NCBI GenBank assembly: GCA_963664815.2
Contig: CAXXHB010000003.1
Coordinates: 2,496,001-2,560,000, forward strand
Source of the DNA: Spirochaetota bacterium
GTDB lineage: Bacteria; Spirochaetota; UBA4802; UBA5550
DNA length: 64,000 bases
Direction of reading: 5' to 3'
Shown here: piece after piece, positions 10,324 to 63,358 of the stretch
Layout: each line of letters starts with the position of its first letter
Numbering within the stretch: the first letter of the stretch is position 1
Program-made: the position numbers and the translations under genes
Notes under the pieces: generated by a model
What the model was told of the DNA's origin: nothing
What the model saw: only the letters and a program-made list of their open reading frames with translations
Database searches by the model: none

Positions 10324-11559
10324 ATGAAGAAATGGATAATAGTTGGAATCATTTTTATCTTTCTGGGAATAGGATTAGTTGCCTACTATGACTCTTTTGT
10401 CAAACCCGAAAGAGAAGCTAAAGAACTTATCGTTGAGGCAAAAATGTCTTTTGAAAGAAATGATAAGGAATCTATAAACAAGGCAATAGATCTTTTTACA
10501 AAAGTGATAGCCAAATATCCCGGAACAGATTCATCCCTTGAAGCATATTACTATATTGCTGAAAGTTATGAAAAACTTAACCTTAACAGGCTTGCATACC
10601 TTAAATATGTTTATCTGTTAAAAGGGAATCAGAAACTAACGCCCGATATGGAAAAGGAAATAACTGCCCGCATAGCAAGATTGAAGATCATGAAGCGTTA
10701 TGATGAAGAGGGAATTCATTCACTTATGGGTCTTCTTAATTACAGCGATAACAAGGATTTCAGAAGCAGAATTTATACCGAACTTGGTCATACATACCTG
10801 ACGACCGGAGAACTTCAGAAATCAAAGAGAATGTTCGATCTTGCCCTCTCCGAAAACGGGAATAATGAAGAAGCAATACTTGGTAAAGCCAGGGCATATA
10901 AAAAACTTGGAAAGGATGAGCAGGCATATGAGCTATATGACCACTTTCTGAAGTATTATTCCAACTTCAGCAATTATACCGGCGATGTAACAACATCCTA
11001 CACAAAGCAACTATATGAAAGCGGGATTTTAAGTTACAGGAAAGGTAAATATTATCCGGCTATTTCATATTTTAAAAAATACATTTCACAGTTTCCGGGG
11101 AGTTCAAAAACAGAGAATTCACTTTACTGGATAGGCGAATCATATTTTGCATTAAAGCAGTATGACAATGCAGTCTCATATTTTAAAAGAGTTCTTGGAA
11201 ATGACTACTATCAAAAAGATCAGGATGCGTACATTAAAATCGGATATTCATACTTTATGGCGAAGAATTACGATCTGGCATCAAGGGAATTCCAGACTTA
11301 TATAGACAATTATCCAAATGGGAAATATCTCGAGCGGGCAAAACAATGGAAAGAGATGAGCACAAAGGAAATGATGTATAAATACAGGAAAAGCGACAAA
11401 CTTGATACTGATGTTGAAGATGAATCAACTGATGGTGACGAAAAAGACAGTACAGATCAGGGATTATCTCCTGAAAATTCCAAAACAGTTAAAACCGAAT
11501 ATAACCTGAAAGAAGAAAAAGGTTCTGATTACAGCAACGACAATATGGCCGAACTTTAA
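10324..11559 (+). CDS. Membrane-anchored tetratricopeptide repeat protein (CpoB/BamD-like)
   Basis: N-terminal TM segment; TPRs such as SLYWIGESYF and AYIKIGYSYF. Confidence 0.85.
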   Translation: MKKWIIVGIIFIFLGIGLVAYYDSFVKPEREAKELIVEAKMSFERNDKESINKAIDLFTKVIAKYPGTDSSLEAYYYIAESYEKLNLNRLAYLKYVYLLKGNQKLTPDMEKEITARIARLKIMKRYDEEGIHSLMGLLNYSDNKDFRSRIYTELGHTYLTTGELQKSKRMFDLALSENGNNEEAILGKARAYKKLGKDEQAYELYDHFLKYYSNFSNYTGDVTTSYTKQLYESGILSYRKGKYYPAISYFKKYISQFPGSSKTENSLYWIGESYFALKQYDNAVSYFKRVLGNDYYQKDQDAYIKIGYSYFMAKNYDLASREFQTYIDNYPNGKYLERAKQWKEMSTKEMMYKYRKSDKLDTDVEDESTDGDEKDSTDQGLSPENSKTVKTEYNLKEEKGSDYSNDNMAEL

Positions 11560-43854: not shown

Positions 43855-43910
43855 AAGCTCCTTACATTAACCAGCCATGCTATGTATAACTATTGTAAAT
43901 TTTCTTACTA

Positions 43911-43980
43911 GTCTGCCAGGTCAGAAAGCTCGCCCCCCTCTTTCCCCTCATAAGAACCGTACGTGAAAGTTTTACCACAG
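43911..43980 (-). repeat. Composite element copy C (group II intron-like DVI and half of DV)
   Basis: GTCTGCCAGGTCAG...GAACCGTACGTGAAAGTTTTACCACAG, then truncated. Confidence 0.85.
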
Positions 43981-47650: not shown

Positions 47651-48189
47651 ACAGGGGGTCACTGAGCCAGCCGAAGTGCAAACATCCTGTTTGCCCGACA
47701 GAACCGCCTGAGCAACAGCCCGACACAATATTAATGGATTTTAAATTACCGGATTTATAATTTCAAGAATAATTCGTATGTAGAAATTTGAATAAATAAA
47801 CAATTGATTCTTTATAACAACCAATATATCTGCTTTTAAATTACTGTTAAACGATACTTTCCGGAATAAATTATCAGTATTTCTTAATCATCAGAATAAA
47901 AGTATCCATTCATGATCTTCCTACATCCACCACAATCATAATACATCAATATGCAGATAATAATCTACAACCACTCTGCTTCGCCGGAGGTGAACGATAC
48001 CTCACCGGTTCAAGAATCTCTTTCACTACAAGCCTTCCGGTTTTGCATGCAGGGCAGCATGAAAGGTTTTTACCTGTGACGCGCAGATAGATTTAACTCC
48101 ATGTCTGCGGTATACTTTCATTCTTCTTTTGAATTTCGTAAAACTCGCGGCATGCCGCAACAGCCTTCTTTTTTTTCCGGTGAGAGAGA

Positions 48190-48397
48190 ATTCCGAAGTA
48201 CCAACAGGGCAAACAATCTTGCCCTTTGCCGGATGTTTCTTGGTCAGCCTCTGGCGGAGCAGGATGAGCGGAGCAAAGAGCTTCTTGAGGATACAGCTTT
48301 CCTGGTCTGGAAATATTTCAGGATTGATATAACTCTCTGCAGGGAGTGTGGAAAAGGACACATTCATTATATCCATGGCTTGTCGACTTACGGTTAG
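48190..48397 (+). pseudogene. C-terminal remnant of an IS91-family (Y2/HUH) transposase
   Basis: NRANNLALCRMFLG...IDITLCRECGKGHI resembles the IS91-family C-terminus (L..CR..LG...D...CP.C.KG); directly followed by the oriIS-bearing repeat. Confidence 0.6.
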
Positions 48398-48797
48398 CTG
48401 TTATAAAGAAGTATATCCGCACAGATTTAAAAACTGTTTTATAGAGAGGATAAGTATGCCCGGAGCTTTTAAGATTTTGCATAAAATCGCCATTTACGGT
48501 CTCTCCGCTGACTGGAGAAATAATTATTTTACGGGATTATTATTTTTTCCGGTAAGATCACCGGATTATTACTGTATATTATTTCAAAGACCGGAAGAAA
48601 ACGGTATTCAAATTCCTGTTATGAGTATTCTGAGTATAATCGAAGCATATTCTGCCCGATTCCAGTGGTTTCGTCCAACAAAAGTTTTAACATGGCTGCT
48701 GTCTGAAGATTGAAATTATCTATCTAATATTTTTATACCACTGATAAAGACCCGCGGTTCTTTTGGGCAGCTACGTTTAGACTTCTATAAGTTATGT
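48398..48797 (+). repeat. Composite element copy E (right half, still attached to the transposase remnant; attC-like 48673-48797)
   Basis: Same sequence blocks as copy D; ends CTATAA|GTTATGT. Confidence 0.9.
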
Positions 48798-49282
48798 GCA
48801 GTACTACCGCGTTTTTTAAAAAATCTGGGAATAAATCTTCCTGTATCCTTACAATATTTTTCATACTCGTTAGGGAAAATAGTTTTTAAATCTTTTTCTT
48901 CTTTTATAATTAGCAAATGCCAAATAGGGTGTAGAATCAATGCCCAAATAATAAATATCCAATTATTTAATAAAAATGCCAAACCAAAATTAAAAAAAGT
49001 TAAAAATGCTGCATACAAAGGATGCCGAAAATATCTCAACGCTCCTGTAGTTATTAATGCCTTACCTCGTAATTTTGGATTTAATGAAACAAGACTCCAA
49101 GTAATTATTATAATGCTAACAATAGTTAATAACACAAAAATAGACACAGGAACAAAATCTTGATTATTAAACACTTGAGGAATATTTAACAAATTTTTTA
49201 AATAAAATGAGATTATTAATAATGCTAAACTTATTAATAATCCAATAGGCCCCGACCCAAATATTCTATTGAAATTATTCAT
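48785..49282 (-). CDS. Isoprenylcysteine carboxyl methyltransferase family membrane protein (cargo)
   Basis: LITTG..RYFRHPLY, EEKDL..F..EYEKY...TGRFIP; stop codon supplied by the element end. Confidence 0.88.
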   Translation of the reverse strand: MNNFNRIFGSGPIGLLISLALLIISFYLKNLLNIPQVFNNQDFVPVSIFVLLTIVSIIIITWSLVSLNPKLRGKALITTGALRYFRHPLYAAFLTFFNFGLAFLLNNWIFIIWALILHPIWHLLIIKEEKDLKTIFPNEYEKYCKDTGRFIPRFFKKRGSTAHNL

Positions 49283-49317
49283 ATAATTCTCCTTTTCAAA
49301 TATTGCTTGCGGTAGTA

Positions 49318-50084
49318 GTCTGCCAGGTCAGGGAACCCGTACCCCCTTTTCCCAATAAGAACCGTATGTGAAAGTTTCACCACAGGCACTTCCTCCGGAC
49401 GCCCTTTATGCGGCTCAAGCCGTCTAAAGCTGATTATACAATCAGCCGCTGTTATCTGATTTTATTCTCATTTTTCTATAGCAGAAATAATCAGAATCTT
49501 CTTTTAAAAATGGGCTCCTGTCAAGACATATCATTCTGTGCCGTACAATTTTAATGTGTCCCGCAGTAAAGAGAATCTCCTCATCAGAACATAAAGTTTG
49601 AGTCTCTTTTCCTATGCGTTTTACAGTACCGGTTTTTAAGCCATAAAGAATTTTTCATCGTATGTCTGGAACTGCCCCATCTCCATAGAGCCTGAAAAAG
49701 AACAGTATTGGAATTTTTAAAAGGATTCCTTTTAAAACCATTCCCCGGAGCTTTTGAGACGTTGAATAAAATCGCCATTCACGGTCTATCCGCTGACTGG
49801 AGAAATAATTATTTTATGTGATTTTTATTTTTTCCGGTAAAATCACCGGATTTTTACTGTATATTATTTCAAAGACCGGAAGAAAACGGTATTCAAAATC
49901 CTATTTATACTTGTGCTTAGTATTATCGAAGCATGTTCTGCCCGATGTCAGTGGTTTCGTCCAACAGAAGTCTTAACATAGATGCTGCTTGAATTTTAAA
50001 ATTATCTGCTTAATATTTTTATACCGCTAATAAAGATTAGCGGTTTTTTTGAGGCAGCTACGTTAAGACTTCTATAAGTTATAT
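49318..50084. mobile_element. Composite element copy F (complete non-autonomous form, 760 bp to the G|TT)
   Basis: Intron DV/DVI 49318-49416 (-), maturase remnant ~49470-49745 (-), oriIS-like 49891-49904, attC-like 49959-50084. Confidence 0.88.
49470..49745 (-). pseudogene. Decayed C-terminus (domain X/D) of a group II intron reverse transcriptase/maturase
   Basis: VLFQALWRWGSSRHTMKNSLWLKNRY, and after a frameshift HIKIVRHRMICLDRSPFL..DSDYF; copy H reads RHPMKNSLWLKNRYF..LDRNPFL. Matches the LWRWAKRRHP.K...W...RYF / IVRH......NP.....YF pattern. Confidence 0.78.
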
Positions 50085-50432
50085 GATTTTTTTGGTCCCT
50101 TCATTACACGAAAATCCTCTATTTTTTATTCTTTTTTCTTTTTTATCTTTAACAAATTCAAGTTTATAATGTAACACTGAAAGTATCGGTGTCAGAGTAT
50201 TTAAGCTGATGTTAGTACTTTTTCCTGATCTTAGATTTTGAATCATTGTTGGAGAAACACCTGATTCTTCTGCTAGTTTTCTGACAGAAATTTTATTTTC
50301 TTCCATAGCTTCAATAAGAAATTCAGAAATAAGAAATTTTTCATATCCTTTTTCAAAATCAGCTTTCCATTCCGGGTCTTGCATGAGTTTATCAAATGTA
50401 CTTAATTGTTCGGGGGCTTTATTCTTCTTCAT
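50079..50432 (-). CDS. XRE HTH antitoxin
   Basis: ISVRKLAEESGVSPTMIQNLRSG; stop TAA lies within ATATAAC at the element junction. Confidence 0.88.
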   Translation of the reverse strand: MKKNKAPEQLSTFDKLMQDPEWKADFEKGYEKFLISEFLIEAMEENKISVRKLAEESGVSPTMIQNLRSGKSTNISLNTLTPILSVLHYKLEFVKDKKEKRIKNRGFSCNEGTKKII

Positions 50433-50811
50433 AATATTTTCCTTCTTTAACTCTTCTTATATAACTTTCTTTATAATTTAATGCTTTAATCTTTTCGTTT
50501 TCAGGTAATTTATCTGATTTTTTCCGAAATGCGTTTGTTACTATGATTGTTTTACCTGTAACGAAGAATGATAAAAATCTTTCCGGTTGAGGTTTAAATG
50601 CGTAAATTTTATCTCCTTCATATCGGAATTTCGTAATGTCATTGATTTTTCCATTATCACCCATTCTCTTGAGAAGGTAGAAAACTTTCTTTTGCATTTC
50701 TGTATCAAGTTCTAATAAATAGTCATAAGCTTGACTATTTCCGGATTCATCATAATACCATTCGATGGTATAAATTTTGCCTTTGTATGCGATGTAGTCT
50801 TTTTTACTCAT
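50419..50811 (-). CDS. RelE/ParE (Gp49-like) toxin
   Basis: IYAFKPQPERFLSFF..IIVTNAFRKKSDKLP; overlaps the antitoxin. Confidence 0.88.
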   Translation of the reverse strand: MSKKDYIAYKGKIYTIEWYYDESGNSQAYDYLLELDTEMQKKVFYLLKRMGDNGKINDITKFRYEGDKIYAFKPQPERFLSFFVTGKTIIVTNAFRKKSDKLPENEKIKALNYKESYIRRVKEGKYYEEE

Positions 50812-51002
50812 AATCTAGTGTATCAATATATTTGCACAATGTCAATAGTTTTTTTAGTTTTATTTCAGTGAAAAGTTTATAAAAATACGTCAAGCAGAGT
50901 ATCTGCCTGTTATATGCCGGTAAAGGCAGGTGCGCCGATATTGCAATTTTTAAAGTGTTTTGATATACCGGAAAAGTCAATCCTGTTATCGACCAGGGCT
51001 CT

Positions 51003-51138
51003 CCAGCGGTTTCATCCAACAAAAGTCTTAACATAGCTGCCATCTGAAGATTAAAATTATCTGCTTAATATTTTATACATCTGATAAAGAATGACGGTTC
51101 TTTTGGGGTAGCTACGTTTAGACTCCTATAAGTGGGGC
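51003..51138 (+). repeat. Composite element copy G (attC-like hairpin only)
   Basis: ATCCAAC..AAGTCTTAACATAGCTGC...GTAGCTACGTTTAGACTCCTATAA|GTGGGGC. Confidence 0.88.
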
Positions 51139-51154
51139 GCAGTATATTGAAATA

Positions 51155-51364
51155 TTAATCTATAAGTTTTATAGATATTATTTTAATATCACAAATATCA
51201 TTACCTTTCTCATATGCGGCATCAAATTGTATTTCTTTAATGGTTGTAACGATAGGGTCTATGTTAAATTCTTTTATTGGAATAGTAATTGTATAGGTGT
51301 TATCAGATGGTTTTTTAATAGAATATTGGTCAGATTCATTCAAATAACTCCAAATATTAATTAA
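51155..51364 (-). pseudogene. 3' fragment of an unknown cargo gene cut by the IS701-like element
   Basis: Short AT-rich ORF end between copy G and the IS inverted repeat. Confidence 0.5.
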
Positions 51365-52501: not shown

Positions 52502-52557
52502 AAGCTCCTTACATTAACCAGCCATGCTATGTATAACTATTGTAAATTTTCTTACTA

Positions 52558-53474
52558 GTCTGCCAGGTCAGGAAGCTCGCGCCTCCTTTCTCCCATAAAA
52601 ACCGTACGTGAAAGTTTTACCACAGGCACTTTCTCCGGTCGCCCTTCATACAGCTCAAGCCGTCTAAAGCTGATTATACAACCAACCGCTGTTAGCTGTT
52701 TTTATTCCCGTTTTTCTATAGTAGAAATAATCAGAATCTTCTTTTAAAAATGGGTTCCTGTCAAGACTTATCATTCTGTGCTGCACAATTTTAATGTGTC
52801 CCGCAGTAATGAGAATCTACTCATCAGAACAGAAAGTTTAAGCCCCTGTTACCTATGCGTTTTAAAGTACCGGTTTTTAAGCCATAAAGAATTTTTCATC
52901 GGGTGTCTGGAACTGCCCCATCTCCATAGAGCCTGAAAAAGAACAGTGTTGTGATTTTTAAAGAATTCCTTTTAAAACCATTCCCCGGGAGCTTTTAAGA
53001 CGTTGAATGAAATTGCCATTCACAGTCTATCCGATGATTGCATAAGTACTTCATTTATAATTATTATCAGATAATCTAATAATTGTCTGGACCCTGATTT
53101 ACCTGATTACAGGATGGTCAGGATTCACCTGCCAGTTCCGGAGACTAAATCATGATAATCTTTTAATCCTTTAATCCCGATTCAGATAGCTGTAGTATCA
53201 GGTTTTTACAAGATTTTTTGTTTTTCCGGTAAAATCACCGGATTCTTACTGCATGTTACTTCAAAGACCGTGAGAAAACTGTATTCAAATTCCTGTTATG
53301 ACTATTCTGAGTATAATCGAAGCATGTTCTGCCCCGATATCAGCGGTTTCGTCCAACAAAAGTCTTAACATAGATGCTTCCTGAATTTTAAAATTATCTG
53401 CTTAATATTTTATACATCTGATAAAGAATGACGGTTCTTTTGGGCAGCTACGTTAAGACTTCTATAAGTTGTAC
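52558..53474. mobile_element. Composite element copy H (complete form with internal insertion, 910 bp)
   Basis: Colinear with copy F; extra palindromic insert near 53041-53210; attC-like 53351-53474. Confidence 0.88.
53084..53188. repeat. REP/MITE-like imperfect palindrome nested in copy H
   Basis: TGTCTGGA..GATT repeats ... AATC repeats..TTCAGATA. Confidence 0.6.
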
Positions 53475-53908
53475 GTCGTTTGATTTTATTTTATTGACTC
53501 CATTAGAATGTAAAAATATTTACCTTCCCTAGTTTTATGTAATTGGTACCATGCTTCTAATGTTTTTTCTTTCATTACACCAATTTTTTTAAAAACTTCA
53601 TAAGAAAATTCCAATGGAGCCAATCCTGTAGCAGTTATTAAATTTTCATCAACAACTACAGGATCATTCACATAAAAATTAATTCCTGTATAATCGGAAC
53701 AAAACATTTTTAGAACCTCTTTGTCATTACTCGTATGCTTTCGATTATCCAGCAGTCCTTTTTGCGCTAATGCTATTGTAGCTCCACAAATTGCAGCGAC
53801 TACAACTTTTTTATTAATCACTTCTGCTACTATATTTAATATTTGATCTTCCCCTGATATAGTGGACATTAAGTTAAGCCGAAAATATAATAAATTTGGA
53901 GGCTTACA

Positions 53909-54199
53909 ATGTCAGAGAGAAGTAAATACAGCCCGGAATTTAAGAAAGAGGCTGTAGAATTATTAAGAACCAGCGGAAAGACATCACTTGAAATAGCGAA
54001 TGATCTTGGGATTAAAAGAGATAATCTATTGCGCTGGAATAGGGAAATTGAAACAGAGGAAAGGAATTCCGGGACAATAACAATAAATCCTCAGGATAGT
54101 GAAGAAATTAAACGACTCAAGAAGGAAATGTTGATTCTTAAGCAGGAGCGTGACATTCTAAAAAAGGCTCTGGGCATATTCTCGAAACCACAAGAATGA
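53909..54199 (+). CDS. IS3 OrfA
   Basis: KYSPEFKKEAV HTH, ERDILKKA; A-AAA-AAG slippery site near 54160. Confidence 0.93.
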   Translation: MSERSKYSPEFKKEAVELLRTSGKTSLEIANDLGIKRDNLLRWNREIETEERNSGTITINPQDSEEIKRLKKEMLILKQERDILKKALGIFSKPQE

Positions 54200-55065
54200 A
54201 ATATGAATTCATCAAGGAACAGAGTACTGAATTTCCAGTATCGAGGATATGCCAGATTATGGATGTGAGTAAAAGCGGTTATTATGCCTGGCTGAAAGCT
54301 CCAAAGAGTATAAGAGGGCTTGAAAATGAAATACTATTGGAGAGGATAAAATCATCACATGAATCAAGCGGAGAGAGCTATGGCAGCCCCAGAATTCATC
54401 AGGATTTACTTGAAGAAGGTATTTTCTGCGGAATACATAGGGTTGAGAGGCTGATGAATGTGAATGGGATTCATGCAAAGACAAAGAAAAAATTTAAGGC
54501 AACCACTGATTCGGGTCATTCTTTGCCAGTGTCTGAGAATATACTAGACAGGAATTTTACTGTTGAAGAGAAAGATAAAGTATATGTGTCAGATATAACC
54601 TATATCTGGACATTAGAAGGCTGGCTGTATTTATGTATAGTAATGGATTTATTTTCCAGAATGATAGTCGGATGGTCAATGGCAAATCATATGAGAGCTG
54701 AACTTGTTGAAGATGCTTTTAACATGGCCTGTATGAGAAGAAATCCGGGCCCTGGCCTGATATTCCATTCTGATAGAGGTAAACAATATGCCAGCAAATC
54801 CTTCAGGGAATTACTTGAATCAAAGAAATGTATTCAGAGTATGAGCAGGAATGGCAATTGCTGGGATAATGCCTGTGCTGAATCTTTATTTCATTCGATG
54901 AAAACAGAAGAATTTTATTTTAATATTTACAAAACAAGGAATGAGGCTAAGAGAAGTATCTTTAGATATATTGAAATATTTTATAACCGTAAAAGAAGGC
55001 ATTCACATCTGGGTTATAAAAGTCCGGAGATTTTTGAAAGATTAAATCTTAAAATAATGGCTTAA
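54196..55065 (+). CDS. IS3 OrfB DDE transposase
   Basis: SDITYI, FHSDRG.QY, NCWDNACAES; ATGA overlap with OrfA. Confidence 0.95.
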   Translation: MKYEFIKEQSTEFPVSRICQIMDVSKSGYYAWLKAPKSIRGLENEILLERIKSSHESSGESYGSPRIHQDLLEEGIFCGIHRVERLMNVNGIHAKTKKKFKATTDSGHSLPVSENILDRNFTVEEKDKVYVSDITYIWTLEGWLYLCIVMDLFSRMIVGWSMANHMRAELVEDAFNMACMRRNPGPGLIFHSDRGKQYASKSFRELLESKKCIQSMSRNGNCWDNACAESLFHSMKTEEFYFNIYKTRNEAKRSIFRYIEIFYNRKRRHSHLGYKSPEIFERLNLKIMA

Positions 55066-55750
55066 CAAAGTGTCCATTTTTTCGGGGGAACATCAATTTT
55101 TTGATTATTTTCATCCATCCAAGTATCGGCTCCCGGTAAAATGAGTAAGTCATTTTCCTTAAATTCAACATCAGCGACATCTTTATCTGGAGTAATAATA
55201 ATCCCTCCCATCGTTTTTATAGGTTTTAAGTTATCGCCTATTTTTATTAATGATATTTTTTCTTTGCTTTTATCTAAATATCTACCACTGTTTAATTCAG
55301 CAATTATAAATCCGATTTCCCAATCAGCTAATGTATCTAATATATACACATAGCAATTTCTACATTTGGTTTCTTTATTCATTTTTCCTCCAATAAATCC
55401 TTTCTTTATTGTCCTGGCCAATTCTTCAGCTTGAACAAAGGCTAATCCAATTATTGTTACAAACAAATAAGTTTTAGCTTCATAATTTTATTCTCAGGCG
55501 GTTTTGTTCAAGCTGTGTTATGTGCTGAAAACACGATTACAAAAAGTTTTGTGTAAGCGAAACGAATGTTGAGCTTGAATGCACTTATTTTACTATTATT
55601 CATTTTTTATTATATTCTTAATCTATTTTTTGTCTTAACTGGCAGAAACCGTTGTAATATACTCCATCATGATTTAATGGTTTGTAAGCGTCAAATTAAC
55701 CCCATCTTGAAAAAAGATCAATGATATATTACAATACCCTTCATTAAAAA

Positions 55751-60033: not shown

Positions 60034-60375
60034 ATCTGCCAGGTCAGGAAGATCGCGCCTCCTTCCCCCCATAAATACCGTACGTGAAAGTTTTACCACA
60101 GGCACTTCCTTCGGTCGCCCTTTTTACGGCTCAAGCCGTCTAAAGCTGATTATACAACCAACCGCTGTTAGCATTTTTATTCCCGTTTTTTATATCAGAA
60201 ATAATCAGAATATTCTTTTAAAATGGGTTCTGCCCGATTCCAGTGGTTTCGTCCAACAAAAGTCTTAACATAGATGCTTCCTGAATTTTAAAATTATCTG
60301 CTTAATATTTTATACATCTGATAAAGATTAGCGGTTTTTTTGAGGCAACTACGTTAAGACTTCTATAAGTTATAT
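60034..60375. mobile_element. Composite element copy J (both ends, centre deleted, 335 bp)
   Basis: Intron-like end 60034-60132 fused at GTTC to the attC-like end 60251-60375; oriIS missing. Confidence 0.88.
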
Positions 60376-63228: not shown

Positions 63229-63358
63229 GTCTGGTAGGTCAGGGAGCTCGCGCCTCCTTTCTACCATAAGAACCGTACGAGAAAGTTTTACCACAGGCAC
63301 TTCCTCCGGTCGCCCTTCTTACGACTCAAGTCGTCTAAAGATGATTATACAACCAGCT
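63229..63358 (-). repeat. Composite element copy L (intron-like DV/DVI end)
   Basis: GTCTGGTAGGTCAGGGAGC...GAACCGTACGAGAAAG...TACGACTCAAG. Confidence 0.85.

Follow-up and report, generated by a model that had tools for sequence, protein, structure and literature searches.

A 24-nt hairpin-loop insert that recurs beyond the decayed group II intron remnants of spirochaetal cassette arrays

The minus strand of a 64,000-nt stretch of Spirochaetota DNA, hereafter the window, carries at 49318–49745 what is, by homology, the decayed 3′ end of a group II intron, with an enlarged domain V (DV). Comparison with other introns and repeats indicates that this enlarged DV exemplifies a 24-nt hairpin-loop insert found repeatedly elsewhere and is not a peculiarity of a dead copy. 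The insert is the interesting part of the locus; the remnant itself is ordinary mobile-element debris that shows how cassette arrays keep and homogenise dead intron tails. No other element of group II introns is as conserved as DV. The features of the remnant, its neighbourhood and its further copies in the window are collected in Table 1.

Table 1. Positions of the intron remnant, its parts, its neighbours and its sister copies in the window.
Feature	Position	Strand	Basis
Intron remnant (maturase tail, DIV closing stem, DV and DVI)	49318-49745	-	homology to the full-length G007 intron
Maturase tail of the remnant, frameshifted, residues ~393-484, stop TGA at 49442-49444	49442-49745	-	translations, two tblastn HSPs in two frames
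Short stem (DIV closing stem) between the maturase stop and DV	49417-49441	-	
Domain V, 58 nt: lower helix (one C-A mismatch), AC bulge, upper helix, enlarged tip	49359-49416	-	
24-nt insert between G and AAA of the DV terminal loop	49378-49401	-	copy alignment, pattern searches, with/without pairs
Domain VI, 41 nt, ends AC; decayed: branch-site A replaced (CCUGGC), basal helix broken	49318-49358	-	
Downstream cassette ORF, 165 aa, starts 35 nt past the intron end	48785-49282	-	
D2 repeat, upstream partner of the remnant in the short composite	49744-49905	-	without detectable intron homology
D1 repeat, attC-like imperfect ~110-nt hairpin	49906-50087	-	ssDNA fold
Second full-length copy of the remnant, D2 junction as at 49 kb, insert present	52548-52972	-	
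Shorter copy, from maturase residue ~460, joined straight to D1, insert present	60035-60230	-	
Shortest DV-bearing copy (DIV stem, DV and DVI) behind an unrelated ORF, insert present	63229-63357	-	
DVI-only fragment	43901-43980	-	84% over 78 nt

The maturase tail of the 49-kb copy lies in two frames, ...NTVLFQALWRWGSSRHTMKNSLWLKNRY... and ...CSDEEILFTAGHIKIVRHRMICLDRSPFLKEDSDYFCYRK...*, both of which match residues ~393–484 of the 484-aa protein of a full-length intron in a second genome of the family, G007. A preliminary description of this DNA had proposed a 5′-truncated group II intron with an enlarged DV and a frameshifted maturase tail, and the maturase tail, DV and DVI were all found on the minus strand as it had stated. 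Only residues ~390–484 of the protein encoded in domain IV are left, frameshifted in this copy, and we therefore consider the remnant to be a fragment and not an intron. Sister copies matched Pfam GIIM with an E value of 5e-4. The ORF downstream of the remnant resembles ICMT/PEMT methyltransferases weakly, below the Pfam cut-offs.

The DV of the 49-kb copy is 58 nt long, as compared with 34 nt in the usual form. According to the published description, DV comprises two helices, a bulge and a GNRA tetraloop at the end (PMC3753933). Relative to that canonical form (PMC3753933; Rfam RF00029), the lower helix with its AGC, the 2-nt bulge, the 5-bp upper helix and the loop G and AAA are all retained, and the G is separated from the AAA by a predicted hairpin of 24 nt. 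The motif GAGCCGYAT..AYACGGTTC occurred once in the window, with zero occurrences expected from 100 shuffles. A scan of the whole window at the gathering score of Rfam returned tRNA only and no Intron_gpII. Using relaxed thresholds, Intron_gpII matched the 49-kb copy at 49322–49418 (19.3 bits, E 0.63 on 1.5 kb), the alignment containing 27 inserted nucleotides in the DV loop. This copy thus scored poorly against the model, whereas sister copies scored up to 50.8 bits: the whole genome yielded 19 Intron_gpII matches, of which nine exceeded the 40-bit cut-off, namely eight remnant-family copies and one unrelated intact intron. Six of these nine matches were ~100 nt long owing to the same insertion and reached up to 50.8 bits.

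A DNA search of 64 genomes of the family, the own genome included, identified G007 as the sole other genome matching the remnant. The full-length G007 intron is 72–74% identical to the remnant over ~340–420 nt. At the protein level, tblastn with the G007 intron protein matched the best own-genome copy with an E value of 6e-50; this copy is 75% identical to the G007 protein over residues 393–484 and has no frameshift. The protein is an En-less reverse transcriptase (RT)/maturase that passes TIGR04416 at 347 bits, and its tail, ...LDTVLFQALWRWARFRHPMKNSFWIKSRYW...HVKILRHRMIKLDKNPFAKEDSDYFYY..., is what had been read by eye in the window. The G007 homologue possesses both the GUGYG 5′ end and domains I–III: its GTGCG lies 13 nt downstream of a hairpin, and D1D4-7 matches it at 59 bits. 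It also possesses a canonical 34-nt DV plus DVI (65.3 bits), and the next ORF begins ~30 nt beyond it. We considered and rejected a series of truncated copies in G007, which holds one full copy and one diverged intron only.

The own genome contains 19 DV-bearing copies of the remnant, spread over ~8 regions of cassette-like arrays. As does the G007 intron, they share their orientation with the flanking ORFs. Alignment of the 19 copies with the G007 intron revealed the insert in 15 and its absence from four; all four DV-bearing copies in the window carry it (those at 49, 52, 60 and 63 kb, the last retaining only the final ~130 nt of the remnant), in agreement with the ~24-nt insertion that had been described as common to the copies. 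On the 3′ side, homology invariably stops at ...CAGAC and the downstream flanks all differ (19 of 19 copies); the exon begins with T in 14 of the 19 and in G007. Using the G007 protein as a tblastn query, we found 15 remnant loci, all of which start at residues 389–401, with nothing N-terminal of these residues at any of the 15. Two copies have an unbroken tail frame of 92–95 aa. The genome yielded no intact maturase or RT (GIIM or RT) of the remnant's lineage and no match to the 5′ ribozyme half (RF02012, D1D4-7) at E ≤ 1. The GTGCG 5′ half and intact RT that were sought on the suggestion of the preliminary description thus have no representative of this lineage. The GUGYG 5′ end and domains I–III are missing from every copy, and no full-length or longer copy is left in the genome as a witness of retrohoming. 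An apparently intact group II intron of another lineage lies inside one array (G000:C3:3194318-3197893, locus L002, G000 being the own genome). This intron matches D1D4-2 at 116.6 bits, has a canonical DV/DVI (51.6 bits) and encodes a 413-aa RT/maturase (RVT_1 + GIIM) that is 30% identical to the G007 protein.

The addition to DV reads CGACC, three variable bases, then GGAAGUGCCU(G/A)UGGUA (the part after the variable bases being GGAAGUGCCUGUGGUA). Pairs of sequences without and with the insert fix its borders. In the own genome, GAAGG-GAAA-GUUUC is the form without it and GAAGG-G(24 nt)AAA-CUUUC the form with it; in the G007 lineage, the corresponding forms are GAUGG-GGAA-CUAUC (G007) and GAUGG-G(24 nt)AAA-CUAUC (G067). 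The insert-bearing DV of G067 belongs to an ORF-less intron of the G007 lineage and has a degenerate 3′ strand; a second locus in G007 also has an insert-bearing DV. A putative 7-bp hairpin within the insert showed 93% pairing and no double changes. The 24-nt insert is predicted to be a discrete hairpin.

To look for the insert in other introns, we scanned one genome per species for canonical DV stems spaced 30–60 nt apart. Of the 34 loci obtained, ~26 were real enlarged DVs, mostly from Bacteroidota, and eight were chance matches in coding sequence, as judged from their flanks and DVI. The 24-nt insert was present at two loci, one in a Bacteroidales MAG (L043) and one in a Brevinema MAG (L065), the latter copy running off its contig. 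The L043 intron is complete, ORF-less and ~735 nt long; it is present as a single copy in its genome, with a GTGCG start, a D1D4-6 match of 121 bits, an enlarged DV and a long DVI. A metagenome contig (L069) holds a relative of this intron. Across six backgrounds, the upper DV helix varies yet stays paired (GAAGG/CUUUC, GAUGG/CUAUC, GCGG/CUGC twice, GAGG/CCUC and GUGG/CCGC), and the insert is nearly constant. In the full-text literature searched, we found no description of insertions or expansions in DV.

Other enlarged DVs, of 54–80 nt, occur in introns of Marinilabiliales (L039, L042, L044, L045, L054, L056 and L060; Labilibaculum, Ancylomarina). The DVI loops of Marinilabiliales introns contain optional hairpin inserts of ~20 nt. 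Several Bacteroidota DVs have the related motif GACCGNAGRGAGU.

The insert also occurs outside introns. A 26-nt search pattern was built on its commonest form, from which the insert of the 49-kb copy departs by two mismatches. Allowing up to three mismatches, the pattern was present in five of 122 genomes of the class, including 14 sites in the own genome, all inside remnants, with zero control matches. A 19-nt core, allowing up to one mismatch, was detected in 11 genomes out of a sample of 401 from the phylum, as compared with one control match; the one-mismatch matches in G155, G363 and G415 are without the CGACC part and may be due to chance. From a reading of the flanks, the insert sits at the tip of non-DV hairpins in seven genomes (G085, G094, G153, G218, G272, G274 and G304). 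Variable bases and 11-nt expansions occur at positions 6–8 of the insert. Among the insert loci searched with Rfam, Intron_gpII matched only at an intron locus (L084), and four non-intron loci (L085, L086, L087 and L089) matched no family at E ≤ 0.1.

One case outside introns is in G153, where a 24-nt palindromic repeat, GGTTCGRG-UUAUGAAA-CYCGAACC, occupies 79 sites on several contigs (loci L108, L114 and L118-L130). At least 10 of the 79 sites read UUAUG(24 nt)AAA. The loop of this palindrome carries the insert, and the position between G and AAA therefore recurs in a third, unrelated hairpin family. Short palindromic repeats of the REP type resemble the G153 repeat in that the latter places the insert in the loop of a 24-nt palindrome found at 79 sites; unlike them, it has an optional fixed 24-nt loop insert that it shares with intron DVs. 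We know of no description of a fixed 24-nt insert that is optional in repeat loops and shared with intron DVs elsewhere.

The occurrence of the insert at one loop position, in the DVs of different introns and in unrelated palindromes, points to a portable RNA module or to an insertion process that targets loops. A tentative reading, to which we give somewhat less than even weight, is that it is a very small hairpin element of 24 nt set between the G and the AAA of GAAA-type loops, which would have come to lie in unrelated hairpins through separate events: in DV, against at least three intron backgrounds, one of them a complete ORF-less intron, and in REP-like palindromes elsewhere in the phylum. 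Such an element could be a new kind of miniature insert that moves into hairpin loops; alternatively, it could be a portable RNA module, such as a cap bound by a protein. The position of the insert would correspond to the U-turn of a GNRA loop. By analogy with such loops, an insert at the U-turn may spare the docking face and hence be tolerated in the catalytic centre.

The arrays that hold the remnants consist of single genes or gene pairs separated by a D1 repeat of ~135 nt, often then followed by a D2 repeat of ~190 nt. Their genes include toxin-antitoxin pairs, small unknown ORFs and TIR-like, Mrr-like and cyclase genes. Arrays extend over 38258–64000 of the window and ~7 other regions of G000, such as C3:1367-1396 kb, 3193-3210 kb and 3686-3692 kb. 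D1 is a ~110-nt imperfect hairpin with a bulged basal stem, and its ssDNA fold had a z-score of about −6 (−6.3) on both strands in two of the three copies tested. Sites of the attC type are imperfect hairpins that have R''/L''...L'/R' boxes and extrahelical bases, and their consensus ends in RYYYAAC/GTTRRRY. D1 ends in TCTTAAC/GTTAAGA, one base off this consensus. The first ~140 nt of D1 are conserved in 13 of the 63 other genomes of the family; D2 shows no such conservation. We also considered D2 as a decayed intron and rejected this: its local alignment with the remnant was no better than those of shuffled sequences (114–121 of 300 as good), and tblastn gave E > 0.8.

The tyrosine recombinases of the arrays resemble integron integrases. 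The best two near arrays scored 220.7 and 164.6 bits on TIGR02249, the cut-off of which is 265. They match IntI4 (2a3v) in two blocks, with ~60 IntI4 residues unmatched opposite a query gap of 18 residues. A XerA-type model, NF040815, fits better and is passed by one recombinase (235 vs 220 bits). As these recombinases are without the IntI-specific region, we do not call the arrays integrons. At one array head, a gene for a Xer-like recombinase (287 aa) overlaps that of an IS91-family transposase (418 aa), both intact (G000:C3:3695389-3697429, minus strand; L033 11386-13429). C-terminal fragments of this transposase, ~90% identical to it, follow D1-D2 at at least five sites, including 47949–48200 in the window. 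A second hairpin repeat, of 58 nt and starting with CTTG, occurs at L033 ~11080-11140 and at least nine other array sites in G000; homology of the intact IS91 3′ end stops right before it, as expected for insertion at CTTG.

To compare the upstream junctions of the remnant, we used the 'long' composite as a ruler. In the short class (five copies, including those at 49 and 52 kb in the window), D1-D2 is joined directly to the remnant. In the long class (four copies), D1-D2 is followed by ~650 nt and then by the remnant; on their opposite strand, these ~650 nt contain part of a second IS91-family transposase (Y2_Tnp), 24% identical to the intact IS91 transposase. Two near-identical copies, one of which is without DV-DVI, have D1, a DUF998 ORF and the remnant in that order, and two copies have unique DNA upstream. 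In the eight copies of the shorter class, the remnant starts further in, at ruler positions 1059 to 1377. Overall, the 5′ ends fall at 1022–1035, 1059, 1183, 1245, 1265, 1299, 1316 and 1377, and all reach ~1445; the 3′ end is missing from one copy only.

At least five different sequences thus lie upstream of the remnant (the D2 repeat, the IS91-type transposase fragment, the DUF998 ORF and two unique stretches), and these junctions are all within maturase codons ~389–405, the value of ~405 coming from a reading of one copy. The D2–remnant junction is identical in five copies and the IS91-fragment–remnant junction in four, at distant loci with different downstream genes. The fusion point that the preliminary description took to be shared is accordingly common in its maturase coordinate (residues 389–401 at 15 of 15 loci) but not in its upstream partner: among the four DV-bearing copies in the window, only those at 49 and 52 kb have the same junction, and that at 60 kb reached the D1 repeat through a further deletion. 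The long composite is the less likely ancestor of the short one, since at the junction the short class is closer to G007 than the long class. It follows that the IS91 fragment is more likely, on this alignment, a later insertion ~10 nt inside the remnant.

The characters of the copies are reassorted. The insert is present or absent in both the short and the long junction class and with both variants of the DIV stem (AATCAG or AGAGAG), and all combinations of insert, junction class and DIV variant occur. A 26-nt internal deletion is common to two long copies and one short copy. Any tree on which all four combinations of two characters occur requires recombination or repeated change. Of the amplification after decay first proposed, the presence of identical decay marks at several loci is borne out: the same junction and the same 26-nt deletion recur. 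Spread as one composite with one fusion point is supported in part only, as the upstream sequences differ and insert, junction and DIV variant appear in all combinations.

The remnants show signs of neutral decay. The branch-site A (CCUACC) is retained in nine of 19 copies and lost in 10, the copies at 49, 52 and 60 kb in the window having CCUGGC, and the AGC triad or the DV stems are mutated in several. Among 13 copies, mean pairwise identity was 0.903 for the maturase tail, 0.882 for the DIV stem, 0.857 for the DV 5′ strand, 0.909 for the insert, 0.924 for the DV 3′ strand and 0.835 for DVI. The segments have thus diverged about equally (0.84–0.92), and DV and DVI are not conserved beyond the dead coding tail. 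In DV/DVI, 88.7% of pair cells were paired, compared with 87.6% in shuffles. Of 86 departures from the commonest pair, 47 break pairing (a sum of rows with one never-forming pair excluded). Double changes occurred in seven cells, five of which contrast G007 or one variant stem with the rest. These pair counts show no sign of selection on RNA structure in the own genome. The missing RT and 5′ half, the loss of the branch-site A in 10 of 19 copies and the even divergence of the segments indicate that the remnant is a non-functional fossil, one that by these signs does nothing today.

The copies probably arose in three steps. An active ancestor would have retrohomed into many intergenic sites of the cassette arrays; the 5′ parts of its copies would then have been lost; and features of decay, including the D2 or IS91-fragment junction, the 26-nt deletion and the DV insert, would have passed between copies by homologous recombination or gene conversion together with duplication within arrays, that is, by concerted evolution of the remains. 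Retrohoming places an exact intron 3′ end beside a different gene in each copy, and the exact 3′ end before 19 different genes argues for intron integration and not for DNA duplication. The shared junctions and the mosaic of characters in turn argue for recombination between copies. Some observations sit less easily with this scenario. No longer copy survives from the retrohoming phase, and no pair of empty and filled sites was found that would reveal directly which unit moved. A cluster of 5′ ends only ~15 nt wide calls for a truncation hot spot or for conversion, and for the shared D2 and IS91-fragment junctions composite transposition would be simpler than repeated conversion.

The latter point is the strength of the main alternative, in which a single truncation and fusion produced a composite of D1 hairpin, D2 and remnant that multiplied as DNA, as a non-autonomous element or through the array recombinases, the insert having arisen once in a dead copy. 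The junctions identical in five and in four copies lie at loci megabases apart and are found in copies with the insert as well as in copies without it, the attC-like hairpin D1 is conserved, and Xer-like recombinases and an intact IS91 stand at array heads. However, the remnant is also preceded, at the same 5′ limit, by at least three other sequences and is then without D1-D2. Its right limit is always the exact intron end, where we recognised no recombination site, and the D1 flanks of the five copies read revealed no conserved target motif or duplication. In addition, the same insert occurs in the DVs of other intron lineages, so that an origin in a dead copy is not required. We consider multiplication of such a composite rather unlikely.

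Independent 5′-truncated retro-insertions from a lost, insert-bearing master, with the truncation point as a hot spot of RT stalling, are less probable still. They would account for the single exact 3′ end before 19 different flanks, with T first in 14 of 19 copies and in G007, and for 5′ ends that vary slightly by context (residues 389–401, one at ~405 and the shorter ones). The unbroken 92–95-aa tail frame in two copies and the insert-bearing DV of a complete ORF-less intron elsewhere are also in keeping with such a master. Identical junctions common to four or five copies are not expected from independent events, nor is an internal deletion common to different junction classes, and the genome retains no master copy. 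In retroelements, 5′ truncations are typically scattered, whereas those of the remnant are clustered.

Co-option of the remnant, suggested earlier in the form of a terIS-like end for rolling-circle (IS91-type) transposition or of the 3′ half of a trans-splicing ribozyme, is very improbable: it can cite the opposite-strand IS91-family transposase fragment directly upstream of the remnant in the long composite and the intact IS91 transposase in the genome, but short-type copies are entirely without the transposase fragment, the 5-kb region of the resident IS91 gave no BLAST match to any remnant locus, the ribozyme-half version is largely refuted by the missing 5′ half (zero RF02012 matches at E ≤ 1, the only other intron being of a different lineage), the branch-site A is lost in 10 of 19 copies, the AGC triad or DV stems are mutated in several, and DV/DVI are conserved no more than the dead coding tail. 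Under the IS91 target rule, the end of the element adjoins GTTC/CTTG. The 3′ end of the resident IS91 abuts CTTG; the five D1 copies whose flanks were read have no conserved GTTC/CTTG there, which also speaks against the terIS-like terminus.

As a truncated intron fossil, the remnant is ordinary by comparison with cases in print (PMC7923331). That source describes 5′-truncated intron fragments in arrays lacking an integrase, H.ha.F1/F2 of Halorhodospira halochloris and UHB.F1, and judges them non-functional (PMC7923331). Like these, the remnant keeps only DV, DVI and a partial protein gene and lies in arrays of small cassettes rich in toxin-antitoxin genes. Unlike them, it has ~19 copies, clustered truncation points, the gene orientation of its neighbours and a 24-nt DV insert. 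Group IIC-attC introns, S.ma.I2 and its relatives among them, are described as inserted into the bottom strand of attC, opposite to cassette transcription, in integrons with IntI (PMC3001079, PMC7923331). The G007 intron, 13 nt past a hairpin, is reminiscent of the homing of such introns at recombination hairpins between cassettes. By contrast, the remnant and the G007 intron are in ORF orientation and the recombinases nearby are without the IntI-specific region.

Contigs of four DNA runs over 48300–51200 break at repeat borders and have only low-support joints; in these fragmented contigs, no empty site was seen. A contig of low depth, present in two DNA runs, links 49972 back to 48764 and thereby connects two D1 copies; this weakly supported joint could be a variant D1 elsewhere or a circular or tandem form of the cassette. 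The composite at 52 kb contains an extra insertion of ~150 nt within D2 (52973–53181, minus strand) that has its own inverted repeats and is possibly a miniature element. Further along the window, at 53486–55466, a DJ-1/PfpI gene is apparently split into 53486–53869 and 55062–55466 (minus strand) by an IS3-type element with an rve integrase ORF at 54196–55065 (plus strand).
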